Assembly: GCA_963758525.1 (NCBI GenBank)
Contig: CAVWVQ010000002.1
Location: 256,001 to 320,000, forward strand
From: an uncultured Phycisphaerales bacterium
Lineage (GTDB): Bacteria; Planctomycetota; Phycisphaerae; Tepidisphaerales; Tepidisphaeraceae
DNA length: 64,000 nucleotides
Direction: 5' to 3'
The position numbers and the translations under genes are program-made. A model generated the notes under the pieces. It worked only from the letters and a program-made list of their open reading frames with translations, searched no databases and was not told where the DNA came from. This document shows, piece after piece, positions 11,327 through 64,000 of the stretch (the first letter of the stretch is position 1; each line of letters opens with the position of its first letter).

Positions 11327-11373
11327 AACGAAGAGGACAATCGGTGGCGGCCAACGCGACGCGCCGCGGAACA

Positions 11374-11985
11374 CTATACCAAGGACAAACTTTCGACGCG
11401 ACGCGGGGCCGTCCACAGCATTGGCTGGTTATCGGGCACTTCCGGGCGGCGGGAAGGTACGCAGCTCGGCGCGGAAAGCTTGGCCTTTACGGCCGGACTG
11501 ATCGTGACCAGGTAGTCCGGCAGGGCCGTCACCGCCGGCTTGCCCGGGGACGCGAATGCGCCCGGCTCGTCGTCCCAGTTGATCATGTGCACGACAACGG
11601 ACCATTGCCCGGCCGCCAACGGCATCGCCCGTGTCGACCGCGTCACCTCCCCGGCAACATGCTCGATTCCGCCGACCGCGACCGCCCCGCGGGAGACGAA
11701 GCGGTACGGCTCGGAGGCGAGGAACAGGTATCGCCGCTCTCGCTCCGAAAGCGCAGCCACGCCCGCGCTGCTCAGACGCACCTCTACCTCCGCGACCATG
11801 TCTCGGCCGATGTTGATCGGGACGAAGTCGCCGGCCGAGATGTGCCGTGTTATGTCTGCGTCATCCTCCAGTTCCCGCGCCCACGTTTGGTAGTCATGGA
11901 CCTGCGAAAAGGCTTCCGGCGACCAGAGGGCGTGCATGCCCGCATCGGTCGCGAACGCACCACGCATGGATTCGCTGGTCGGCAT
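11374..11985 (-). CDS. Hypothetical cassette protein (3' end probably frameshifted; native stop near 11429)
   Basis: Bounded by the 12-nt inverted pair gttatcgggcac (11428) and gtgcccgataac (ends 12003). Confidence 0.6.
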   Translation of the reverse strand: MPTSESMRGAFATDAGMHALWSPEAFSQVHDYQTWARELEDDADITRHISAGDFVPINIGRDMVAEVEVRLSSAGVAALSERERRYLFLASEPYRFVSRGAVAVGGIEHVAGEVTRSTRAMPLAAGQWSVVVHMINWDDEPGAFASPGKPAVTALPDYLVTISPAVKAKLSAPSCVPSRRPEVPDNQPMLWTAPRRVESLSLV

Positions 11986-12284
11986 CGTCTTGTGCCCGAT
12001 AACGAAGAGGACTTTATCCAGCGTGCGCCAGCGACGCCGGTACTCGCGACCGCTTGTCGCACGCTGGATAAAGTCTGTTGAACTGAACCGATTTTGGACG
12101 TCAACGCACGGGAGCAATTAGCCCGAAAAACCGCGCGCATACATTATTATAGGGGATTGTATTCATAGCATATTTCCGACAAAAAAGGCGGTGTCGCAAA
12201 CTGATAATCGCTCGTCAGAGAGAAGGCTGCGGCGATGCTTAGAGTACCGAACGCCGGGCGACTGCCCACCGCGCAGCGGTTTAG

Positions 12285-14220
12285 GTGCGCCTGCGAGCGT
12301 ACCAGCATAGAGAGGTGCAAGTCCTCTCCGGGCATAGCGTTCTCCAGCCCGTAACTGAAAGTAACTGCGTGGCCGTGAGGCCAGGTGGAGAGCAACTGGA
12401 GGTGAACGACCAGTCCGAAACACAAGTGAACTCGATTCGGCCTGAAACGGTGACGAGCCTGCCTAAAAGTGGCGAAGTCCAGACCCGCGAGGGAGCGATG
12501 CATCTTTCAAGGGAAGCCCGGTGAGCTGAAGGGTAACGTGCAGAGAGGCGACGAGCCTCTCGTAAAGCGATGCCGGGGCCGTGAGGGTGATTGGAGTCGG
12601 AATGGTTGGAAGTGCTGGTGCGTGAAGCAGGGAGACCTGTTCCGGAAAGCGAACGGAGTTCATACGCCGTAACCAGTCGGCGTCGAAGAGCCGCCGGGGC
12701 AGGAGTCAGAGCGTCCGTAGTAGCGACGAAACGCCTTAACGGGCGTGGAGCCAAGGGACGCAGGAAAGTGGATGCGGGATGAATAGACCAATGGAACAAC
12801 AATCGGCGCGAGTGCCCCGACTCGGGGCTAAGCAAGCCGAAGAATCCCATCGCATCGCGGGCGCAGGCTCGCGATGGGCATGGGCGGAACCATCGGTCTG
12901 GACAGCGCGCATGTTGCAGGCCCTTGAACAAGGGGTCAAAGGAGGCATCTGGTTCAGCCTGATTGATAAAGTCTACAAACGCAGCAACCTCTGGTCGTCA
13001 TGGAGTAAGGTGGCGGCCAACAAGGGAGCGGCAGGCGTGGACCATGTGACGGTGAAGCAGTACGAGCGCCATGTGGAAAAGCACATCGAGCATCTGACGG
13101 AAGAACTGAGGGCCGGGACGTATCGGCCCAAGGCGATCCGCCGGTGCTACATCCCCAAACCCGGCAGCGCCCAGGGGCGACCGCTGGGGATACCGACTGT
13201 GCAGGACCGCGTGGTTCAGGGCGTGCTGCGTCACGTGCTGGAACCGATCTTCGAGAAGGACTTTCACGAGCACAGCTACGGCTTTCGCCCCGGAAGGGGA
13301 TGCAAAGACGCGCTGCGTCACGTGCAGAAACTTTTGGACGACGGATACCGGTACGTGGTAGACGCGGATCTGAAAAGCTACTTTGACACGATCCCGCACC
13401 GGCAGTTAATGGAGCGGGTGAGCCAGAAGGTGGCCGACGGACGAGTGCTGAAACTGATCGAATCATTCCTCACGCAAGGCGTGCTGGAAGGACTGGACCA
13501 GTGGACGCCCGCATCCGGCGCGCCGCAAGGCGCGGTGCTCAGCCCACTGCTGAGTAACGTCTATCTGGACCCGCTGGACCATCTGATGGCCCGGCAGGGA
13601 TTCCAGATGGTGCGCTACGCGGATGACTTTGTGATCCTGTGTCAGAGCCAAGAGGAGGCCGAGCGGGCGCTGGCCGAGGTGCAACGATGGACGGCGCAAG
13701 CCGGTCTGACGCTGCATCCGGAGAAGACACGAATCGTCGATGAGCGACAAAAGGGCTTCGACTTCCTGGGCTATCACTTTGGCCAAGGTCAAAGAGAACC
13801 CCGGAGCAAGAGCCTCAAGAAACTCAAAGACACCATTCGTGAAAAGACCCAACGTCGGAACGGCACTCGAATGGTCTGCATCATCGGCACGGTCAATCAG
13901 ACGCTGCGTGGCTGGTTTGGCTACTTCAAACACAGCCGACGCGAGACGTTCGCTCCGCTGGACGCGTGGATCCGTATGAGGCTGCGAAGCATCTTGCGGC
14001 GACGCCACGGCGGGCGTGGACGTGGCGGTGGTCGTGACCACTACCGCTGGCCCAATGCATACTTTGCCAAGCTGGGACTTTTCTCGCTGTTACAAGCCCA
14101 TCGCTTGGCCTGTCAACCCGCTCGAACGGGAACCCACTGACTGGAGAGCCGGATGCGGGAGAACCGCCAGTCCGGTTCGGCGGGAGGGGAGGCCGGGAAA
14201 CCGGCCTTCCCTACCCCGAT
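12285..14220 (+). mobile_element. Group II intron (ribozyme plus intron-encoded protein)
   Basis: 5' GTGCG at 12285; domain V gagagccggatgcgggagaaccgccagtccggttcgg and domain VI ending ccctaccccgat at 14220; removing it restores the repeat sequence tttag|ttcaac. Confidence 0.92.
12779..14140 (+). CDS. ltrA: Group II intron reverse transcriptase/maturase, no endonuclease domain
   Basis: NKGAAGVD, RPLGIPTVQDRVVQ, SYGFRPGR, DADLKSYFDTI, GAPQGAVLSPLLSNVYL, RYADDF, FDFLG and an X domain (LRGWFGYF). Confidence 0.93.
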   Translation: MNRPMEQQSARVPRLGAKQAEESHRIAGAGSRWAWAEPSVWTARMLQALEQGVKGGIWFSLIDKVYKRSNLWSSWSKVAANKGAAGVDHVTVKQYERHVEKHIEHLTEELRAGTYRPKAIRRCYIPKPGSAQGRPLGIPTVQDRVVQGVLRHVLEPIFEKDFHEHSYGFRPGRGCKDALRHVQKLLDDGYRYVVDADLKSYFDTIPHRQLMERVSQKVADGRVLKLIESFLTQGVLEGLDQWTPASGAPQGAVLSPLLSNVYLDPLDHLMARQGFQMVRYADDFVILCQSQEEAERALAEVQRWTAQAGLTLHPEKTRIVDERQKGFDFLGYHFGQGQREPRSKSLKKLKDTIREKTQRRNGTRMVCIIGTVNQTLRGWFGYFKHSRRETFAPLDAWIRMRLRSILRRRHGGRGRGGGRDHYRWPNAYFAKLGLFSLLQAHRLACQPARTGTH

Positions 14221-14312
14221 TTCAACGGACCAGCATTGAACGGCCGGCCGGGCTTGACCGTTTCTCGAATCACGAGGACCGTTCCGCCCGGCCGGTCCGT
14301 TCCAGTGCTTGG

Positions 14313-14822
14313 TTATCCGGCACCGGCCAGTTCCGCCGGCTCGACAAGCGTGCGCTCCGTCTCAAGGTCATCGTACTGCACGAACGTGAGTGCATGCGGC
14401 TGGAGGCGCTGCAACTCTGCCAGCGAAGCATGCGCATCAGCGGTCAAAGCCGATTGGCGCAACGCCTCGAAGACCCGCCGATCCATTTCTTCATGTGCTC
14501 GCTCGAACGCGTCAGCTTCAGCTTCAGCTTCGGCATCGGGCAACTCGTAATAGAGCGCCTCCAGACACGCCACTTTCACGCCCGCGACGTTCGCGTTCCG
14601 CTTCGGGCGCTCGGGATCCGGCGAGAACCAGATCAAGCCGCTGCCAAAGCGGACGTACGCACGCAGCCGGTCCCATTCCCAATCCGGCTTCGCGCGAACG
14701 AACTCCGCAACGGCACGGGCGACGAGCGGCCACGCCTCGCTCATACGAGCGATGACGTCCGCCCAGTCCGTCACGCGGAGGTCGATGTGCAAGACGCCGT
14801 CTTTGAGCCGTTCGACGTTCAT
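14313..14822 (-). CDS. Hypothetical cassette protein
   Basis: Stop TAA within R'' gtgccggataac; cassette starts gttatccggcacATG. Confidence 0.7.
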   Translation of the reverse strand: MNVERLKDGVLHIDLRVTDWADVIARMSEAWPLVARAVAEFVRAKPDWEWDRLRAYVRFGSGLIWFSPDPERPKRNANVAGVKVACLEALYYELPDAEAEAEADAFERAHEEMDRRVFEALRQSALTADAHASLAELQRLQPHALTFVQYDDLETERTLVEPAELAGAG

Positions 14823-14831
14823 GTGCCGGAT

Positions 14832-15109
14832 AACGAAGAGGACTTTATCCAGCGTGCGCCAGCGACGCCGGTACTCGCGACCGCTTGTCGCACGCTGGAT
14901 AAAGTCTGTTGAACTGAACCGATTTTGGACGTCAACGCACGGGAGCAATTAGCCCGAAAAACCGCGCGCATACATTATTATAGGGGATAGCATATTTCCG
15001 ACAAAAAAGGCGGTGTCGCAAACTGATAATCGCTCGTCAGAGAGAAGGCTGCGGCGATGCTTAGAGTACCGAACACCGGGCGACTGCCCACCGCGCAGCG
15101 GTTTAGTTC
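14832..15109 (-). repeat. Mini-cassette copy 2 (278 bp, 9-bp internal deletion)
   Basis: Near-identical to the other copies but lacks tgtattcat at about 14988. Confidence 0.92.
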
Positions 15110-15200
15110 AACGGACCAACGTTCAATGGCCGGCACCACGCCGACCGGCTTTCAATTTACCAAAACGCCCGACGTGGGGCCGGTCCATTGCAGCGTTTGG

Positions 15201-15464
15201 TTATGCGGCTGGCTCGCGGCGTGACTTTACTCGGACCCAGCACCCGTCATCGACCACCAACGAATGAAGCTTTGAACCGCCGACGGGACGCCGAAAACCG
15301 AAAGAAACCCAACGAAATCCGCGGTCGTCGATTTCACTGATCACAAGCACACGTCCACTATCGATTAACTTTCGGACAACGGCTCGCGTCGATCGCTCCC
15401 GCCATTCAGGCGACACCGCCACCATACGAATGCGATCACCGAGCTTAAGGGGTCGAAGCCGCAT
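15201..15464 (-). CDS. Small hypothetical cassette protein (87 aa)
   Basis: GTT-ATG start, stop in R''; 11-nt inverted pair gttatgcggct. Confidence 0.65.
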   Translation of the reverse strand: MRLRPLKLGDRIRMVAVSPEWRERSTRAVVRKLIDSGRVLVISEIDDRGFRWVSFGFRRPVGGSKLHSLVVDDGCWVRVKSRREPAA

Positions 15465-16038
15465 AACGAAGAGGACTTTATCCAGCGTGCGCCAGCGACG
15501 CCGGTACTCGCGACCGCTTGTCGCACGCTGGATAAAGTCTGTTGAACTGAACCGATTTTGGACGTCAACGCACGGGAGCAATTAGCCCGAAAAACCGCGC
15601 ACACACATTATTATAGGGGATTGTATTCATAGCATATTTCCGACAAAAAAGGCGGTGTCGCAAACTGATAATCGCTCGTCAGAGAGAAGGCTGCGGCGAT
15701 GCTTAGAGTACCGAACACCGGGCGACTGCCCACCGCGCAGCGGTTTAGTTCAACGAAGAGGACTTTATCCAGCGTGCGCCAGCGACGCCGGTACTCGCGA
15801 CCGCTTGTCGCACGCTGGATAAAGTCTGTTGAACTGAACCGATTTTGGACGTCAACGCACGGGAGCAATTAGCCCGAAAAACCGCGCGCACACATTATTA
15901 TAGGGGATTGTATTCATAGCATATTTCCGACAAAAAAGGCGGTGTCGCAAACTGATAATCGCTCGTCAGAGAGAAGGCTGCGGCGATGCTTAGAGTACCG
16001 AACACCGGGCGACTGCCCACCGCGCAGCGGTTTAGTTC
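15465..16038 (-). repeat. Mini-cassette copies 3 and 4, head-to-tail tandem (2 x 287 bp)
   Basis: Junction cggtttagttcaacgaagagg at 15741-15761. Confidence 0.93.
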
Positions 16039-16146
16039 AACGGATGACAATCTGTGGCGGCCAACGCGACGCGCCGAGGAACACTATACCAAGGACAAAC
16101 TTTCGACGCGACGCGGGGCCGTCCACACGTCCACAGCATTGGCTGG

Positions 16147-16494
16147 TTATCCCTGCGGCCGAGTTGCGGGGGTCGGATCATTCACAAATGGTAACCTGAC
16201 TCTGAAGGCGATCGGAGCCGGTGGAGCACTTTCCAAAACAATCCTTCGCAGGTCGGCGAGCGCAGCTTCATCGGCGACCGTACCGAAAACGCCTAGAGAA
16301 CCTTCCTGGCCTGTAAATGTTTCGAGATGCACATCCGTAAACCGCGGATCGCGGTGAAGCTTCTCCGCGAGAATCGGGATGTGATCCGCAGCTGCCCGCA
16401 TATTGATCGCTTGGTGACCGCCGGGAGAGTATGGGTAGTAGATCGCTACTGCTAGCACGACAACGCCGAGGAAGCCGTAGAGCCGCTTTCGCAT
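16147..16494 (-). CDS. Hypothetical membrane-anchored or secreted cassette protein
   Basis: N-terminal hydrophobic stretch; 11-nt inverted pair gttatccctgc. Confidence 0.65.
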   Translation of the reverse strand: MRKRLYGFLGVVVLAVAIYYPYSPGGHQAINMRAAADHIPILAEKLHRDPRFTDVHLETFTGQEGSLGVFGTVADEAALADLRRIVLESAPPAPIAFRVRLPFVNDPTPATRPQG

Positions 16495-16840
16495 GAGCAG
16501 GGATAACGAAGAGGACTTTATCCAGTGTGCGACCAAAGCCGTGGCCAAGCCGAACCGGTTCAACGCACACTGGATAAAGTCTGTTGAACTGAACCGGCCG
16601 TCAGCTATGGGGATTGTATCGAGCTGCCGGAGCGGTGTCTCGCTCGGACTGGTGCGGGGCGCATCCGCGCCGTGAGGTGACGGGTGGGAACGGCTTTCCC
16701 GATCGACTCAACCCGGTTGGAATGTCGTCTGGAATCGCCGTTGGCGGACCGCAATCTCACGATCGGCGCGCACCATCCCCCTTGCCGCCGTGGAGCGGTC
16801 AATTGAACAACCGCGAGGATGGGCGGACGTGGCATGTGCA

Positions 16841-18004
16841 TCAGGAGGAGTCCAATCGGGCGAGGAGTTCGGCCAGTTGAAACGGCCCGAGATTCTCTCC
16901 CGGGAGCAACTGGCCCCGGCCGCACGACGGGCAGCACCGAGGTTTGGACGGGCCGGCGCCGAGCACGCCTGGAGTGCCTTCTTCCGGCTTGGTCACGGCA
17001 ATTGCCAGCAGGCGCCGGCAGTCGATCAGGTTCTGTGTTCTCACACAATTGGCCAATAGCCCGAAGTGGCGGATGCGCACGAAGCCGGAGGGAACCGCGT
17101 GCAGCAGGAACCGGCGGAGGAACTCATCTCTGTCCAGCGTCATCGTGCCTGGCCGGTTCTGGTGGGCGTAGTCTTTGTACGTGAAGGTGACGGTCTGGTC
17201 GTCCATCGCGACAAGCCTTCGGTTGGAGATGGCGATGCGGTGGGTGTAGCGACTGAGGTACTTGAGCACCTGCTCGGGCCCGCCGAACGGTGGCTTGGCG
17301 TAGACGACCCAATCGTGTTTGACGGAGAGATCGAGCAGCCGCTCAAAGCCGTCATCGTCTTCCGCGCCGATCAGCTTGCCGCTCTTGCGTGCGCGTTTGA
17401 GCAGGTCGATGAACTTGCCGCGGAAGACTTTGGAGAGCACGCGCACCGGCAGGAAGAAGCCGGGGCGGCAGCGGATCCATTTGGAGCCGTCGGGTGAGAG
17501 CCCGCCGCCGGGAACCACGCAATGCACGTGAGGATGCAGGCAGAGGTTCTGGCCCCAGGTGTGCAGGATGGACATGAAGCCGATCTTCGCCCCCAGGTGC
17601 TTTGGATTGGCCGCCACCTCCGACAGCGTCTGGCCCACGGCATCGAACAGCACGCCATAGATCACCCGTTTGTTGGCCAGCGCCAGCGCGTTGAACGTGT
17701 CGGGAAGCGTAAAGACCACGTGGAAGTATTCGATCGGCAGCAGTTCTTCTGCGCGATCTGCCATCCACCGCGCGCAGGCGGACGCCTGGCACTTGGGGCA
17801 GTGCCGGTTGCGGCAGGAGTTGTAAGCGACACGCCGGTAGTGGCAGTGATCGCACGTCTCGACATGGCCGCCCAATGCGGCGGTGCGGCAGGAGACAATG
17901 GCGCAGGATCCGCTGCTGCGCGCCGCTGAGGTTCTCAAGCCGATGGCCGTGACGTTCGATGACATCCGCCAGTTCCAGCGCGGGCGCTGGAACGGTGGCG
18001 TCAT
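16841..18004 (-). CDS. IS91-family (Y2) transposase with N-terminal zinc-binding domain; two compensating frameshifts near the 5' end
   Basis: CRTAALGGH, CDHC, YNSCRNRHCPKC, YFHVVFTLP, LHTWGQ..HPHVHC (HUH), YLSRY (YxxxY) and RIRHFGLLAN. Confidence 0.88.
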   Translation of the reverse strand: MTPPFQRPRWNWRMSSNVTAIGLRTSAARSSGSCAIVSCRTAALGGHVETCDHCHYRRVAYNSCRNRHCPKCQASACARWMADRAEELLPIEYFHVVFTLPDTFNALALANKRVIYGVLFDAVGQTLSEVAANPKHLGAKIGFMSILHTWGQNLCLHPHVHCVVPGGGLSPDGSKWIRCRPGFFLPVRVLSKVFRGKFIDLLKRARKSGKLIGAEDDDGFERLLDLSVKHDWVVYAKPPFGGPEQVLKYLSRYTHRIAISNRRLVAMDDQTVTFTYKDYAHQNRPGTMTLDRDEFLRRFLLHAVPSGFVRIRHFGLLANCVRTQNLIDCRRLLAIAVTKPEEGTPGVLGAGPSKPRCCPSCGRGQLLPGENLGPFQLAELLARLDSS

Positions 18005-18868
18005 GTCGTTGCGGCGACTGCCTGTGGCGCGTAAAGCAGATCCAGCGGACTTGCAGCAGCGCTCAACTTGGCCTGCGGAGACGTGCAGGTAGATTGCCGT
18101 GGTCTTGATGTTGCGGTGTCCCAGCAGCACCTGGATCGTCCGCAGGTCGGTGCCCGCATCCAGCAGATGCGTGGCATAGCTGTGACGCAGCGTGTGCGGA
18201 CTGACCGGCCGCGTGATGCCCGCGCGGCGGGCGAACCGCTGCACGATCCGGCAACCTCCTCCGCCATCCTGATGGCGGGTGGGATCATCCGACTGGGGGA
18301 AGAGCCACTCGGCCGGACGCGCCTGCTTCCAGTAGTCGCGCAGCACCGCCAGCAGTTGCGGGGAGAGCTTGGCCATCTGAGCCTTGCTCCCCTTGCCGTC
18401 GCGAACGTGGATCAGCATCCGCGAACTATCGATATCCCCCGGCTTCAGCGCCAGCGCCTCGGAGATGCGCAGCCCCGCGCCGTAGAGCGTCATCATCAAT
18501 GCCTGGTGCCTGGGCTCATTGGCCGCAACCTCGAAAAGCCGGCGCAGCTCATCGGGCGAGAGGACCATGGGGAGCCGTTTGGGCCGCTTGGCGCAGGGGA
18601 GCTTCTCGAACCACTCGTCGCGCCCAAGCGTCACGCGGTAGAAGAACTGAAGGGCGCAGCGCGTCTGGTTGTAGAGGCTCCAGCTCACCTTCCGTTCCTT
18701 CACCATGTACAGCAGGTACTGGCGTACCTGTTCGCCGCTGAGTTGCTCGGGCGAACGGCCATAGTGTCTGGAGAAGTGAGCCACCGCCCGCACATAGGCT
18801 TCCACCGTGTGCGGCGAGAAGTTGCGCAGCTGAATGTCCTCGATCAGTCGTTGCCGAAGTGCCGTCAT
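18001..18868 (-). CDS. Tyrosine recombinase (phage-integrase family, SAM-like N-terminus); frameshift near 18075
   Basis: YGAGLRISE, DGKG, HTLRHSYATHLL, LLGH, TTAIY; AGGAG RBS; the typical C-terminus QAKLSAAASPLDLL lies in another frame and ends at 18001, overlapping the transposase ATG. Confidence 0.88.
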
Positions 18869-19056
18869 CAAATCGCTCCTTGTAAGAGAAGCGATCCATG
18901 ATGCCGGGCACCGATCAACGGTACGATTTTGCGGGCAGTGCAGAAATGAAGGTTACGTCTGTCCCCACCGCGCAGCGGTTTAGTTCAACAGACGCGACGC
19001 GGGCCGGTCCACAGCAGCGGCTGGTTATCCGGCACGCCGGGACGCCGCGACTGAAG

Positions 19057-19602
19057 TCACCCCTCCGGCACCACCATACCAAGCGTGGACAATTCGTCCG
19101 CCTCGACGCTCAACCGGAGTTGCCGATTGAACGTTTGGCCATCCTCGCGCACATCGCCGGCGAACACGAGGAAATTGTCCGGCAGCGCGAGGTCGGCGAA
19201 GTCGCCGGACCGACTTCGGGCCGCGTGCGTGACGGAACGTGAAACACGACCGACGAGTTCTTCGTTCGCGGTCATTACTGCTTGCCATTCCGAGTGCGGT
19301 GCGCCTGCGAGCGATGCCGACAGCCTCTCGTAGTAGGGCTCCATAGCTTCGCAGACAGGCTTCAAGACATCCCAGTGCCACTCGGCCGGTGCCCACCGAA
19401 CGCCTTCATCCGTCAGCATGCTCTCGGCGTTGACACCGAAGATGGGTGCCGAGATGACGGTGTAGTCGCAGTAAAGAATCCAGAAGGCGCCGGCGTAGAA
19501 AGTCTCGCCCGGGTTTTGGCGCAGCAGATCGGCAAGCCCGCGGTGGATCTCAATGGGCCACTGCGACTCTATTTGGTTGAGAAGGGCGCGGTGACGGTCC
19601 AT
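19057..19602 (-). CDS. DUF4303-like protein (cassette gene)
   Basis: ETFYAGAFW and VRWAPAEW motifs; 12-nt inverted pair gttatccggcac. Confidence 0.6.
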   Translation of the reverse strand: MDRHRALLNQIESQWPIEIHRGLADLLRQNPGETFYAGAFWILYCDYTVISAPIFGVNAESMLTDEGVRWAPAEWHWDVLKPVCEAMEPYYERLSASLAGAPHSEWQAVMTANEELVGRVSRSVTHAARSRSGDFADLALPDNFLVFAGDVREDGQTFNRQLRLSVEADELSTLGMVVPEG

Positions 19603-19616
19603 TTGTTGTGCCGGAT

Positions 19617-19903
19617 AACGAAGAGGACTTTATCCAGCGTGCGCCAGCGACGCCGGTACTCGCGACCGCTTGTCGCACGCTGGATAAAGTCTGTTGAACT
19701 GAACCGATTTTGGACGTCAACGCACGGGAGCAATTAGCCCGAAAAACCGCGCGCATACATTATTATAGGGGATTGTATTCATAGCATATTTCCGACAAAA
19801 AAGGCGGTGTCGCAAACTGATAATCGCTCGTCAGAGAGAAGGCTGCGGCGATGCTTAGAGTACCGAACACCGGGCGCCTGCCCACCGCGCAGCGGTTTAG
19901 TTC
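19617..19903 (-). repeat. Mini-cassette copy 5 (287 bp)
   Basis: Near-identical repeat. Confidence 0.93.
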
Positions 19904-20003
19904 AACGGATAACAATCTCTGGCGGGTCACGCGACGCGCCAGGGCACGTTGGACTAAAGACAAACTATCGACGCGACGCGGACCCGTCCAGAGCATTGTT
20001 TGG

Positions 20004-20588
20004 TTATGCCCTCGTGCCGTCAGGCCGCTCGGGTGCTTGCAGCCCGGCTTCCTTAATGAGCGCCCGATAGCGCCCCTCCTCACCGGGGGTATCCGCCGCC
20101 GGGTGCCCTAGCAGCCGTTCAACAGGCCAGATGGCCCTATTGTCGAACCGTTCGTCGTCTAGCAAGAGCAGTAGGGCGCCCGCTTTCTGAGCGATCGAAA
20201 TCCAAGTATTGCGAACACTGGGCGACTCTTCGAAGAGCAAGCTCATACCGGTAGTAGCGGCTGTCGCTCGGAAGATCACCAAATTTCCCTCCACGATAAG
20301 GGTACTCCAGACGCACCCGATCCGGACCAGACCGTTAATCAATTTTCGCTCTGGGCTGTAAGCCTCGACTTGTCCATCAGGGGGAAATAGGAAGCCGAGG
20401 CATAGGTCTGACATGTTCTGTTCTAGGGGCGTGCGTTCTATATCCCCGAGCGGGCAATCCACGTCCGAGGGAACACAAGCAAGCAAACGACCGCTATCAG
20501 TGGGATCCAGATGTTCCGCGATAGCACGAATGACGCGGTCCGCGGACGAGCGCTCGGCAATGAGCTCGAAAGCGTAATCTAGTCCCAT
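20004..20588 (-). CDS. Hypothetical cassette protein
   Basis: MGLDYAFEL start; stop in R''; 13-nt inverted pair gttatgccctcgt. Confidence 0.65.
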   Translation of the reverse strand: MGLDYAFELIAERSSADRVIRAIAEHLDPTDSGRLLACVPSDVDCPLGDIERTPLEQNMSDLCLGFLFPPDGQVEAYSPERKLINGLVRIGCVWSTLIVEGNLVIFRATAATTGMSLLFEESPSVRNTWISIAQKAGALLLLLDDERFDNRAIWPVERLLGHPAADTPGEEGRYRALIKEAGLQAPERPDGTRA

Positions 20589-20616
20589 CGTGCCACCGGT
20601 TCCGCTACGAGGGCAT

Positions 20617-20903
20617 AACGAAGAGGACTTTATCCAGCGTGCGCCAGCGACGCCGGTACTCGCGACCGCTTGTCGCACGCTGGATAAAGTCTGTTGAACT
20701 GAACCGATTTTGGACGTCAACGCACGGGAGCAATTAGCCCGAAAAACCGCGCGCATACATTATTATAGGGGATTGTATTCATAGCATATTTCCGACACAA
20801 AAGGCGGTGTCGCAAACTGATAATCGCTCGTCAGAGAGAAGGCTGCGGCGATGCTTAGAGTACCGAACACCGGGCGCCTGCCCACCGCGCAGCGGTTTAG
20901 TTC
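20617..20903 (-). repeat. Mini-cassette copy 6 (287 bp)
   Basis: Near-identical repeat. Confidence 0.93.
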
Positions 20904-21003
20904 AACGGATGACAATCTGTGGCGGCCAACGCGACGCGCCGACGGACACTATACCAAAGACAAACTTTCGACGCGACGCGGGGCCGTCCACAGCATTGGC
21001 TGG

Positions 21004-21530
21004 TTATTCGGCGACCGGTGAGCGGGTCGTGTACGGTTGAGACGGTGCCCCTTCGCTAATATAGCGCTTGGCGATTTCTTCGGCGCGGCGGCGCGCTCGG
21101 TCCGAGCCGGCATCTAAGCTGCCGAATTCAGCGTTCTCACGAATCACCTTTGCCACAGCAGGACTGTACACTAATTCTGCGCGCCAGTTGGCAAGATGCT
21201 TTGCACGCATGCTGAGTTTGATGAACCGATGCGATTTCCGGTGACGGCCCATTACGGTGACGCTCTCCCCGCCCATGCCCCAAAAGAAATCGTAGACGAA
21301 CACTTTCGCGCCGGCGCAAAATGCTTGGTCCCGCGGCGCTTCTCGACACCCCCCGGACCATAATCTCGCTCTATGACGACATTGGCGGCGACGCACCAAG
21401 CAGGTTCGGAGCCCCGATTCTCGTAACCCGGATCGATCCAGGCTGGCAGCTGAGAGCCACCGGCGATTTGAGGTGCGACGGAGGCCGGTTTTGATTTCGG
21501 ACGCAGAAATCGGAGTAGAAAGTCGAGCAT
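21004..21530 (-). CDS. Hypothetical cassette protein, frameshifted near 21315
   Basis: WCVAANVV..GTKHFAP continues as GAKVFVYDFFWGMGGE..GRHRKSHRFI in another frame; 12-nt inverted pair gttattcggcga. Confidence 0.65.
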
Positions 21531-21553: not shown

Positions 21554-21722
21554 AACGTATCAACGTTCTGTGGCCGGCCGCCGTGGACTGCGGTTCTCCA
21601 ATGCCACCGTCGTGGCCGGTCCACAGCAGCGTTTGGTTAGGTTTCCTGCGCAAAAGCCTATAACAACGAAAACCATCATTTGCAAGAAATACGCAAGATT
21701 ACGACATGCTTAATGGAAACCT
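21554..21722 (-). other. First cassette: short, ORF-less, AT-rich
   Basis: attC at 21554-21638; 11-nt inverted pair gttaggtttcc / ggaaacctaac. Confidence 0.7.
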
Positions 21723-21793
21723 AACTACAAATCTCACGCGCTCGGGTGCCTATAGCGGTTACGGGCAAGCCGTCGCGGCCCCCAGTATCGTCT

Positions 21794-21823
21794 AATTTAC
21801 ATAATTTACATAGATAGTGTCAA
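21794..21823 (-). promoter_or_regulatory. Pc-like sigma70 promoter facing the array
   Basis: TTGACA-18 nt-TAAATT on the minus strand, about 70 bp upstream of the first cassette GTT. Confidence 0.55.
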
Positions 21824-22657
21824 CCACTCGCCAGAATATTGGCGGGCGAATTTCGCGCGTAGGTTAGGGCGCGTGATATTGCTGGAGCGCTTTTGGCGAA
21901 GAGAGTAGACAAAGGCAGGAGCGGGCGAGAGCCCGGCGACAAGTCGCTCGGCTCTGCGCTGGCGCGACGTGGATGCCCCCTTGGATTGGACGACGCTACC
22001 CAATGCCAGACGCAACCGTCGTTCGGAAAGCACCGCCCCCACCCCGGCCCTCCCCCCGGAGTACCAGGGGAGGGGGGAAACCGTGGAGCGAACGCTCCGC
22101 CGAAAGCGTCAGGGCGCCGGAGCATCGGGCTGCACCTGCAAGCGCAACCTTGATTGCTCGCGAGGCCCTTCCCCTTCCGCGTAAGGAAACGTCAGATCAG
22201 TCAGATATGCAAAGGCCGATGGCGAATTTGCGGGCGTGGCGGGGGCATGAGCGGGAGATTTGCTTTTTTTCGCGACGTGGATTCGTCGCGGGATCCGAAT
22301 ACTTGGAATCAGGGCATCGCTTGCGGAGGGCGTGCATGAACCTTCGGCTGCACGTTCGCGTGCGGACTTCCCCCTTCGGATCGGGGGCTCGAGTTGGAAG
22401 AGAGCGTTTGGAGCGAAGACAGTTCTTTTACGTTCGAAATCACCCTCACCCCTGCCCTCTCCCGGAATAATACCGGGAGAGGGAGAACATGCAGCGACGC
22501 TCGTCAGCCGCGGTGATTGCTCCCTCTGCTGGAAATACCCGGAGAGGGAGAAGACGCAACGATGGTCGTGCAGCTGCGGTGATCGTGCATGTCGGTGATT
22601 GAGTGGCTGGCAACCATGCGGATAATGGGTTAAAGGAACATCCGGAGTACGTATCGC

Positions 22658-32307: not shown

Positions 32308-32900
32308 CGCCTCCATTCGTGTTCGAGAATGCTGTAGAGAAACGAATTCCGCCACTCACCCTTCGACCAGACATGCTCGCGCAGGCGGCCTTGGCGCGTC
32401 ATCTTCAACTTTTCCATGACGCGCCAGGACCCGACGTTCCGCTCATCGGCGGTGCTGTAAATACGATGCAGCCCGAGAGTTTCAAAACCGTATCTCAGCA
32501 TCGCTGCGGCCGCTTCCGTGGCGTACCCGTTCCCCCAATAGTCTTTGCGATAACAATAACCCGGCATCGCCGCCTTGGCATCAGCGCCCTCAAGAAATCA
32601 GTGCGCGCCGGGTGTGGCGCTCGAAAGTGGCGATCGGCTCCGAGTAGGGCGGGATTCATCCCGCCGATTTGTTGGCCGGCTGAGAAAACGGCGGGATGAA
32701 TCCCGCCCTACGATCGCAAAATCTGCAATCGCCACAAATAAAAGTTACACCCTGCGCGCCCGCCGATGAGTTGGTTGCCTTCCTTCAAAACCACGCAAAT
32801 CTCAAATGCCCGCCGTGGTGTCTGTCTGGCGTGGCGTTGCATTCGTTCGATGTAGTCCCTGGTCTGCTGCTCGTTGTTCGGACCCCACATCACGTCATAC
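32304..32900 (-). pseudogene. RimJ-like GNAT acetyltransferase disrupted by a MITE
   Basis: WGPNNEQQTRDYI and GYCYRKDYWGNGYATEAA..LGLHRI..NVGSWRVMEKLKM split by a 143-bp insertion; an additional frameshift and a missing 5' end. Confidence 0.75.
32610..32752. mobile_element. 143-bp MITE carrying an inverted GTAG-REP pair, copy 1
   Basis: gggtgt...acaccc termini; 8-bp duplication tgcgcgcc (32602-32609 and 32753-32760). Confidence 0.85.
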
Positions 32901-46198: not shown

Positions 46199-46341
46199 GG
46201 GTGTAACTTTTATTTGTGGCGATTGCAGATTTTGCGATCGTAGGGCGGGATTCATCCCGCCGTTTTCTCAGCCGGCCAACAAATCGGCGGGATGAATCCC
46301 GCCCTACTCGGAGCCGATCGCCACTTTCGAGCGCCACACCC
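46199..46341. mobile_element. 143-bp MITE, copy 2 (inverted relative to copy 1)
   Basis: Reverse complement of 32610-32752; 8-bp duplication ccgtcggg (46191-46198 and 46342-46349). Confidence 0.85.
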
Positions 46342-52950: not shown

Positions 52951-53012
52951 GGTTAGCCGCGACGCGCAGCGGAGCGCTTCCGGACGCGCTCCGCTGCGCG
53001 TCGCGGCTAACC
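52951..53012. repeat. GTTAG-type REP doublet
   Basis: ggttagccgcgacgcgcagcggagcg plus an inverted copy; same family as the RAYT flanks. Confidence 0.8.
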
Positions 53013-53043
53013 GGAGATGCGCGCCAAGCTTCCCGCGCTCTCA

Positions 53044-59991: not shown

Positions 59992-60020
59992 GGGCAGGGT
60001 TTGAGTGCGTTGCGCACTCG

Positions 60021-60155
60021 CGTTCGAATACGCGCTCCGCTGCGCGTCGCGGCTAACCGCTGATAACGACGATCGTCCGCGTTCCGACGAAGGTGCGGTG
60101 CGCCAGAGTGAGCTTTGGGTTAGCCGCGACGCGCAGCGGAGCGCGTATTCGAACG
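60021..60155. repeat. GTTAG-type REP pair flanking the RAYT (also 60811-60942 and 63795-63959)
   Basis: gttagccgcgacgcgcagcggagcg(c/a)gtattcg in both orientations. Confidence 0.85.
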
Positions 60156-60207
60156 CAAAGCGGCGCGGTCTCACTCAAAACCCAACGATCTCGTTTAAGC
60201 TTCCAGT

Positions 60208-60783
60208 TTAGTAACAAACGCCCACCTTTGTCGCTTCTTTCCTTCCTTCAGCGGATTTGCCTCCACATATTGGATTGCGCCAGACATCGTCGGGATCAAG
60301 GAACACCTTCCACTCCCCCCGCGCAAATGCCTTTGGAGTTCTCCGACCCTCGCGCCGATATTTCGCGAGAGGATGGATTCCCTCCTTCTCCAGTTCCAAC
60401 GTCGCGGAGGCTTTGAGCTGAATCACTGTCTGTTCCACACGAAGATGCGATCTGCCGAGAACCATATGCACATGATCAGGCATGATCGAGCAAGCCCAGA
60501 CCGGAAGCCCCGATCGCGCCGCATAGAGCGCAAACCCACGGGCGACGGCCCTTGCCTGCAATCCGTTGAAGAGAACGGGCGGATATTGCAGCGCTTTCTT
60601 CGATGCTATGCGCTTGGCGCGGTCGTGCTCGCCGTAGGCGAGCGAATGCGTTTCTGCGGTCGTGGTTGCGCCCCCGTATCGAAACAAGTCCCATGACCCA
60701 ACGAAGTCGGACCATGAGCCGCGAGGGTCGTTCGGGAGCCAGAATCCGTAGGTGCTGAAGATGACGTGGTATCCGACGATCAT
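60208..60783 (-). CDS. REP-associated tyrosine transposase (RAYT, Y1 HUH); frameshift near the 3' end
   Basis: YHVIFSTYGFWLP.DPRG and IMPDHVH; the IQYVEANP segment is in another frame; flanked by REPs. Confidence 0.82.
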   Translation of the reverse strand: MIVGYHVIFSTYGFWLPNDPRGSWSDFVGSWDLFRYGGATTTAETHSLAYGEHDRAKRIASKKALQYPPVLFNGLQARAVARGFALYAARSGLPVWACSIMPDHVHMVLGRSHLRVEQTVIQLKASATLELEKEGIHPLAKYRREGRRTPKAFARGEWKVFLDPDDVWRNPICGGKSAEGRKEATKVGVCY

Positions 60784-61043
60784 GCGGGTTCATATATTAC
60801 GGTATCACGCGCACGAATACTCGCTCCGCTGCGCGTCGCGGCTAACCTTCGAGCTGGATTTTACCAAGTGCGCTGATTAGTACATGCAGTCGCTGCGTCT
60901 CTGAGGTTAGCCGCGACGCGCAGCGGAGCGAGTATTCGTGCGCCAGACGCCCGATTAACCACCTGCGCCCTTTCTTCGTCATCAGTATTTGCCCACGCGC
61001 CATTTCAACGCACCGGGGCGATCGGCCTATTATGTCATAAGAA

Positions 61044-63761: not shown

Positions 63762-64000
63762 AGCGATGCGGCGCAGGCAGACCACCTCATGCCCGGTTAG
63801 CCGCGACGCGCAGCGGAGCGCGTATTCGAGCGCCTGAAACCGTAGCTCGATCTGCAAGCTTGAATGAAACGCAATGTATCCTGGATCTCGCTGCGGGTTA
63901 GCTGAGACTGCGCCCGCTTTGCATTCGAATACGCGCTCCGCTGCGCGTCGCGGCTAACCGCGGAAAATGCAAGCGCGACGGTGCCCGCAAGAGGATGCTC

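Follow-up and report, generated by a model that had tools for sequence, protein, structure and literature searches.

Minis and a damaged full copy of an IS91-like element with its own tyrosine recombinase at consecutive attC junctions of a Phycisphaerales integron array

Introduction

In integrons, gene cassettes are bounded at G|TT, the start of a cassette pairs with its own site, and the integrase IntI acts on an attC site that is folded and single-stranded (PMC5027507, PMC4792948). Transposons of the IS91 group (IS91, IS801, IS1294 and IS1294b) are built around a Y2 HUH transposase. The end that lies upstream of the transposase gene has a palindrome and GTTC (the terIS of IS801/IS1294), an upstream gene overlaps the transposase start, and circular intermediates are expected (PMC13181058). 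Here we describe an element that resembles both, including in having a recombinase related to IntI. It was found in 64,000 nucleotides (“the window”) of an uncultured Phycisphaerales bacterium (GCA_963758525.1, contig CAVWVQ010000002.1, positions 256,001 to 320,000).

The reading that we prefer, at a probability of roughly 0.55, is that the window holds short, gene-less copies (“minis”) and a damaged full copy of a widespread element that combines an IS91-type transposase with a tyrosine recombinase, and that would move as single-stranded DNA circles that mimic attC and insert at AAC. A first-pass annotation of the window was not aware of any description of the arrangement. The literature that we searched (ISfinder and most subscription papers lay outside the search) has one passing mention, of ISShvi3 beside an attC (PMC9229058); the accessible parts of PMC9345347, PMC5737581 and PMC8876359 do not describe the arrangement.

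Six consecutive junctions of the array are occupied

Inserted units occupy six of the window's eight attC junctions, at six consecutive positions and in cassette orientation, and cassette genes and units alternate almost strictly (Table 1). On the plus strand, every unit opens with AAC and closes with GTTC, and the next site follows directly with its own AAC. As the cassette genes are on the minus strand, each unit begins at G|TT when read in the cassette direction. The first-pass annotation had listed six 287-bp units at the G|TT of host attC sites. There are indeed six near-identical minis in one orientation, and the crossover point and the six junctions stand. Only four of the minis are 287 bp long, as the one at 14832 is 278 bp (a 9-bp deletion), and the one at 12001 is interrupted 3 bases from its end by a group II intron of 1936 bp that had gone unreported. 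At 18987, just the R'' half of an attC is present.

The mini had also been taken for a derivative of the full-size element in the window, with both termini in common. The last 23 bp are identical, but the first 92 bp agree at only 79%, and an 11-bp inner motif is all that is shared besides, so the mini stems from a relative and not from this full copy. Mini copies differ from one another by 0-5 substitutions and have unique flanks, and neighboring minis have private changes in common. Across the genome there are eight minis (six in the window and two in an integron on contig C1), one full copy, and about 10 relic ends. All nine intact copies lie at attC junctions (one of these via the tandem copy and three via the intron), and none lies at attI at present. 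A search for the exact left-end motif in 140 other genomes of the same order gave no match. Judging by its first bases, the attC at 11327 is likely to be the footprint of a copy that was lost, by imprecise deletion, from a seventh junction.

The cassette genes had no match in a Pfam search (6 of 6). A promoter consensus scan gave four matches in the region against 3.0 expected, which is not significant; the 278-bp mini is the only one to match, with a promoter-like sequence (16-nt spacer) that was created by the 9-bp deletion and faces the next cassette.

Ends, fold, and genes of the element

Relatives were collected by a protein search of 401 genomes of the phylum (39 with a match) and by a scan of GTDB for the end motif, in which about 3800 stored stretches hold one end motif, 120 loci being retrieved from these. 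Complete elements number 27, of which 25 are distinct, the one in the window included. For the 14 that came from the motif scan, the search pattern dictated the right-hand AAC but not the left-hand one.

The anatomy is constant. On the left side, every complete element has the core triplet; 4-10 nt further on comes a near-perfect hairpin and, after another 0-5 nt, a 14-base stretch that complements the right end together with the core. The right end consists of a palindrome with GTTC or CTTG after it, and this terIS-like tip is conserved among the relatives found by protein search. A terIS is recognized by a subterminal palindrome adjoining GTTC or CTCG (PMC13181058), as is seen at 18967-18986. 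Pairing between the ends of the 25 distinct elements extends to 288 of 350 positions, compared with a mean of 267 and a maximum of 280 in 5000 partner swaps, although this is not a probability because kin are not independent. There are also paired changes: a core ATG goes with CAT (L017), CTTG with CAAG (L032), and AATC with GATT in three elements on alphaproteobacterial plasmids (Rhizobium, Ensifer, and Paracoccus). The left boundary carries the core in 22 of 25 elements (the chance level is 538 of 3511 windows). Whether there is no target duplication, as first stated, depends on the counting: the triplet at both ends can be counted as a shared crossover core, as at an integron crossover, or as a 3-bp repeat.

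For the natural tandem junction in the window (15738-15841), the predicted folding energy is -41.3 kcal/mol (z -9.7; none of 200 shuffles was as good). The folded junction is attC-like, with a G|TT boundary, R'/R''-type complementarity, and 14-bp pairing across the tandem junction. Its stem is an unbroken 18 bp, with spacers of 6 versus 1 and no extrahelical bases, whereas the host attC sites are bulged. No circle joint was present among the joints listed in contigs from sequencing runs of related organisms, and no free 2.5-kb circle among 15 stretches from a viral collection. In two loci of one relative's genome (L211 and L214, genome G351), a hairpin module occurs in tandem, joined at GTTC|AAC, and the same five bases follow all four copies in that genome.

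Independent minis of 295-307 bp occur in other loci, one of 305 bp lying backwards at an attC R'' (L092) and another being 307 bp long (L136). A third locus, an unrelated AT-rich array (L329), has four (295-298 bp, 80%-86% alike) at R' in the cassette direction, three of them at consecutive junctions. Minis are thus multicopy, gene-less units with both ends of an autonomous partner, and they and the full elements retain a CTATGGGG-type motif, which we infer to be oriIS-like.

The transposase of the full copy is assigned to the IS91-family Y2 HUH enzymes (PF04986, 210 bits; PF14319; NF033538, 417.6 bits against a cut-off of 125). The first-pass annotation was right that a recombinase gene accompanies it, but in this copy the two read as a single frame of 676 aa because of three indels within 180 bases (17900-18077), seen by comparison with the contig of a 96% identical relative. 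A fusion protein as a real feature was rejected, as these indels account for it and none of the 24 other complete elements is fused. The indels may reflect either decay or assembly error, which would look the same here. This damaged gene is the sole Y2 gene found in the assembly.

The catalytic set R-K-H-R-H-Y of the recombinase is invariant in 44 of 44 full-length element proteins. The span from K to HxxR, which in IntI contains the IntI-specific insertion, is 64-79 residues, compared with 105-107 in 26 of 29 rows labeled IntI (one of the other three being a mislabeled element protein) and 69-71 in Xer. For the window recombinase, the best family match is the integron integrase model TIGR02249, at 193 bits, below the cut-off of 265. 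In a quick tree of 57 rows, including 21 element recombinases (six of them labeled “Other,” from element loci) and 10 IntI, the element recombinases and IntI form one branch separate from Xer and others (SH-aLRT, Shimodaira-Hasegawa-like approximate likelihood ratio test, 98). Monophyly of the element recombinases has support of 89 in this tree and was weak, 59, in an earlier quick tree. A survey has an “integron-like” recombinase subgroup in which the insertion is not fully conserved, and IS91 goes unmentioned in its accessible portion (PMC8138268).

What is shown, then, is the anatomy, the shared core triplet, the co-varying end pairing, the intact catalytic set, and the grouping with IntI. 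The earlier idea of a pseudo-cassette with a nonautonomous form is supported, and the element ends are retained in lineages in which no IntI was found.

Table 1. Features of the occupied array, with positions in the window
Feature	Position	Strand	Remark
attC	11327..11430	-	first 12 bases (11327-11338) are the element's left end
Mini 1	12001..12284	-	last 3 bases at 14221-14223, past the intron
Group II intron	12285..14220	+	reverse transcriptase/maturase 12779-14140; in terIS-like end, between TTTAG and TTC
Host attC	14224..14314	-	
Mini 2	14832..15109	-	278 bp
Host attC	15110..15202	-	
Mini 3	15465..15751	-	tandem with mini 4
Mini 4	15752..16038	-	junction 15738-15841 is identical in sequence to the predicted circle junction
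Host attC	16039..16148	-	short internal duplication
Full-size element	16505..18986	-	2482 bp
Left end	16505..16596	.	AAC core, 6-nt spacer, 18-bp hairpin, 14 bases complementary to right end plus core
CTATGGGG-type motif	16605..16619	+	conserved; kept in minis too
IS91-family Y2 HUH transposase	16841..18004	-	two indels near start in this copy
Tyrosine recombinase	18001..18868	-	IntI-related group, without IntI insertion; one indel near end in this copy
Right end	18967..18986	+	short palindrome then GTTC (terIS-like)
Half attC	18987..19026	-	R'' side only
Mini 5	19617..19903	-	
Host attC	19904..20005	-	
Mini 6	20617..20903	-	
Host attC	20904..21005	-	
attC, unoccupied	21554..21638	-	of short gene-less first cassette
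attI region and both flanks of deleted intI	21723..21932	+	76% and 94% like the intact C1 integron

Where the relatives insert

Right flanks were scored with a home-made attC scan that finds five of the eight host sites (a stricter first classifier found one of eight). Among 112 distinct relatives, 24 flanks score as attC, compared with 10 of 377 and 8 of 336 in two sets of controls; about seven more are attC by eye and were missed by the scan. By arm, the 24 comprise 12 top, nine bottom, and three without a bulge, and 12 of the 24 relatives are placed backwards at R''. Two other flanks are directly before an intI start and five are within 360 bases of an intI end. In the remaining 72, T is found at +8 in 39, versus 636 of 2766 control sites. 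“attC-targeting,” the specificity first claimed, is therefore too narrow for a family that uses attI, either arm of attC, and mostly other AAC sites. No strand bias is supported, the AAC strand skew being positive in six and negative in six of 12 relatives' loci, and in the window's own genome the GC skew is too weak to give the direction of replication.

Some of these insertions are found where IntI is not. In one genome (G276), four non-att sites are each occupied by an identical copy with AAC at its boundaries; no IntI exceeded the cut-off, with 48 of 48 candidates scored in an assembly that is 90% complete and in 120 contigs. No IntI over the cut-off was found in G351 (one contig, four copies) or in G264 either. 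One element is present at three sites on three Rhizobium plasmids, and no IntI was found on one of those three or on two other plasmids searched; integrons were reported in 0 of 243 alphaproteobacterial genomes (PMC4889954). Since the family inserts also in genomes in which no IntI was detected, its integrase is likely to be the recombinase that the element itself encodes.

Two observations concern unusual sites. In G276, insertions lie in tandem repeats of an AAC-containing heptamer (L207 and L209), and at L218:3115-3199 an intron-bearing element lies backwards in the inner arm of another element's hairpin, like relatives at R''.

Host IntI and the choice of arm in this genome

The integron on contig C1 encodes an IntI above the cut-off (338.8 bits). 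The array in the window terminates in an attI that is 76% like that of C1, and its intI has been lost almost cleanly (~1.08 kb), between the first codons and the downstream flank (window 21873-21932). One block of a mini and a gene is present in both arrays, behind different attC sites.

In this genome, T at +8, the target base preferred by the relatives, is present in 17 of the 18 top arms that were parsed, the remaining one being a parsing error, and in none of 20 parsed bottom arms. All nine intact copies nevertheless use the bottom arm, at R' and in the cassette direction, which leaves the attC whole. IntI prefers the bottom strand by orders of magnitude (PMC5027507). Given that the copies use the IntI-type arm and avoid the arm that fits the family consensus, it is likely that the host IntI of C1 spread the minis here. 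The first-pass annotation had counted copies lying mostly off attC, and movement that needs the host IntI only, as evidence against its own view; the former is true of the relatives and untrue of this genome (nine of nine at attC), and the latter is what the choice of arm points to.

Proposed mechanism and its weak points

We propose the following steps. The Y2 enzyme would nick at the terIS-like GTTC and make a single strand; for GTTC to adjoin the left end, a circle or a tandem is needed. The joined ends would fold into an attC mimic, an IntI-type recombinase would exchange one strand at AA|C, and replication would resolve the strand-exchange junction. Across the family, the element's own recombinase would perform the integration, and minis, judging by the shared ends, would be mobilized in trans. 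In this genome, the minis would have entered normal integron traffic via the host IntI, which would place them at attI or on the bottom strand of attC, at times as one unit with the gene cassette behind them.

Several points weigh against this scheme. The site of the element lacks extrahelical bases and has the 6-versus-1 spacer, and removal of extrahelical bases cut recombination of VCR2 by IntI1 50-fold (PMC5027507), so the site may be a poor IntI substrate. The recombinase is without the insertion that IntI needs for single-stranded sites. The scheme does not account for the presence of the hairpin in a strand that is peeled off one integrated copy. The close relatives L217 and L218, one at a non-attC site and the other backwards in the hairpin of another element, indicate that the lineage does not always behave as it does here. 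Nine of the 24 scored relatives are on bottom arms, for which the element's own enzyme could be responsible; the block of mini and gene in both arrays could have come from homologous recombination; and part of the preference for T at +8 stems from attC and attI sites that the scan missed.

Alternative explanations

A doubtful alternative, though the strongest of those considered, is that the two enzymes of the element itself direct insertion to attC and account for all copies here, with no part played by the host IntI. The filling of the array, from which intI is deleted, and its near-strict alternation with genes would fit, as would the position of all nine intact copies at attC, the absence of copies at attI, the enrichment of relatives at attC, and the noncanonical spacer of the element. 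Against this, most relatives lie elsewhere than attC, the arm used misfits the family target consensus although the unused arm fits it, an intact IntI with a similar attI is available on C1, and the only Y2 gene detected in the assembly has indels.

It is improbable that the HUH transposase inserts the element alone, directed to the target triplet by pairing with subterminal bases that serve as a DNA guide, the recombinase being an accessory. The core and its complement do change together, the right end carries the IS91 tetranucleotides GTTC or CTTG, and the hairpin-module tandem in G351, joined at GTTC|AAC, fits a nick there. In IS91, however, the tetranucleotide 5' of the nick is fixed, and here it is variable: none of the 19 complete elements with four flank letters has GTTC or CTTG at the ori-side flank (in the window's genome, GTTC is found there only at the tandem copy). 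The fixed letters are instead the triplet that IntI cuts, a second preferred target position lies eight bases on, as in a two-armed recombinase site, and the catalytic residues of the recombinase are invariant.

Very improbable is the view that these are ordinary cassettes, the short ones gene-less, which the host IntI alone moved everywhere with the two enzymes as cargo. Cassette geometry is perfect here and some insertions are beside intI. An IntI over the cut-off is encoded in 31 of 49 host genomes (50 of the 120 loci were submitted) and, within the phylum, in 14 of 38 genomes with the element versus 70 of 362 others, with only five candidates scored per genome; GWT sites anywhere can be used by IntI (10.1101/2022.09.11.507474). 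Such a view does not account for identical copies at multiple sites where no IntI was found, for top-arm insertions being as many as bottom-arm ones, or for the terIS-like end and inner motif of the minis, which a plain cassette does not need.

That the repeats are an assembly artefact, as the three clustered indels of the full copy might suggest, has next to no probability, because copies differ, flanks are unique, boundaries are base-exact in two arrays, and the same arrangement is present in an unrelated record (L329).

A group II intron in the element tip

The intron in mini 1 has a GUGYG start, an AY end, domains V/VI, and a reverse transcriptase-maturase (RF00029, 50.5 bits; TIGR04416, 404 against a cut-off of 300). 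Four full copies are present in the genome, all at TTTAG|TTC of an element's right end. Its closest relatives, from metagenomes (87%-94% protein identity), are in the same element tip in five of five cases; among the other 75, 11 have a scorable upstream exon and none of these is at this site. One relative (L224) sits after a similar palindrome, and in a contig from sequencing run X1 the same intron is joined to the right end of a full element. We propose that this intron lineage homes to the element tip, where it would inactivate the nick site. A different group II intron was seen in an element right end in another genome (L030, G374), two bases further on.

Other observations

The gene-less first cassette (21554-21725) includes an AT-rich stretch that looks promoter-like by eye, without a match there in the consensus scan. 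At 2563-2630 and 2121-2215 there is a decayed left end of the full type, after a short cassette with a decayed attC. Palindromic repeats like repetitive extragenic palindromic (REP) sequences occur elsewhere in the window (52951-53020, 60020-60947, 63795-63967, 32644-32711, and 46240-46307). On contig C3, a fully symmetric hairpin (G000:C3:101277-101361), both of whose arms correspond to the left arm, has cassettes running away on both strands and may be the remnant of two head-to-head copies. Relics at G000:C3:122016-122290, 124500-124799, and 4029960-4030186, and at C1:212000-212900, have the inner motif joined to the recombinase start; in this C3/C1 relic family the link is a shared unrelated repeat. 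A second attI-like copy lies within the C1 array (G000:C1:206263-206418).

Comparison with known systems

ISShvi3, ISSod25, ISAzo26, and ISWz1 are IS91-like elements with an integrase gene. Such elements, with their two genes, are probably of the same family as the one described here; ISShvi3 was reported beside an attC (PMC9229058). Compared with the IS91 group as usually defined, the upstream gene is a tyrosine recombinase, the ori-side flank is not GTTC or CTTG, the core triplet is present at both ends, and the ori-side end has an extra long hairpin. Compared with integron cassettes, the site has no extrahelical bases and a 6-versus-1 spacer, and, unlike IntI, the recombinase is without the I2 insertion and is encoded by the mobile unit itself, alongside an HUH enzyme.

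A folded single-stranded site without extrahelical bases, a recombinase without I2, and single-strand exchange are combined in CTXphi and XerCD (PMC4792948), as in the scheme proposed here. The phage borrows the host XerCD at dif, whereas the element has its own recombinase, no virion, and many AAC sites. The origin of IntI and the folded attC is an open question, and it has been speculated that integrons came from a phage-like ancestor with a folded site without extrahelical bases (PMC4792948). As the element combines, in 2.5 kb, a sister recombinase of IntI, a folded site without bulges, and an HUH enzyme, it makes this idea testable. A tentative extension, possible rather than probable, is that the family is a living sister group of integrons, with an HUH enzyme that produces a single-stranded circle and a recombinase lacking I2 that inserts the folded junction at AAC; that IntI and attC descend from such an element; and that minis compatible with the host IntI fill arrays and carry an intron parasite of their own.

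Parasites of attC are already known in the IS1111-attC elements and IIC-attC introns, which insert inside attC and against the cassette direction (PMC3001079, PMC7923331); the copies here are at the crossover and in the cassette direction. The intron in the array differs again: it targets the element tip at TTAG/T instead of attC, and its domain V has an AGC triad, compared with TTGT/T at attC R'' and the CGC triad that defines class IIC, so by that definition it is not class IIC (PMC7923331). If our preferred reading is true, the element would be a third kind of integron parasite, one that can fill an array junction by junction and may alter the expression and excision of cassettes. Integron annotation is affected, since the family is common (~3800 GTDB stretches hold one of its end motifs), and the three-layer nesting of integron, element, and intron is a natural test of which end features matter. 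In sum, the element appears to act like a self-contained cassette, and it is neither a canonical IS91 element, as the target rule fails, nor a canonical cassette, as its site has no extrahelical bases.

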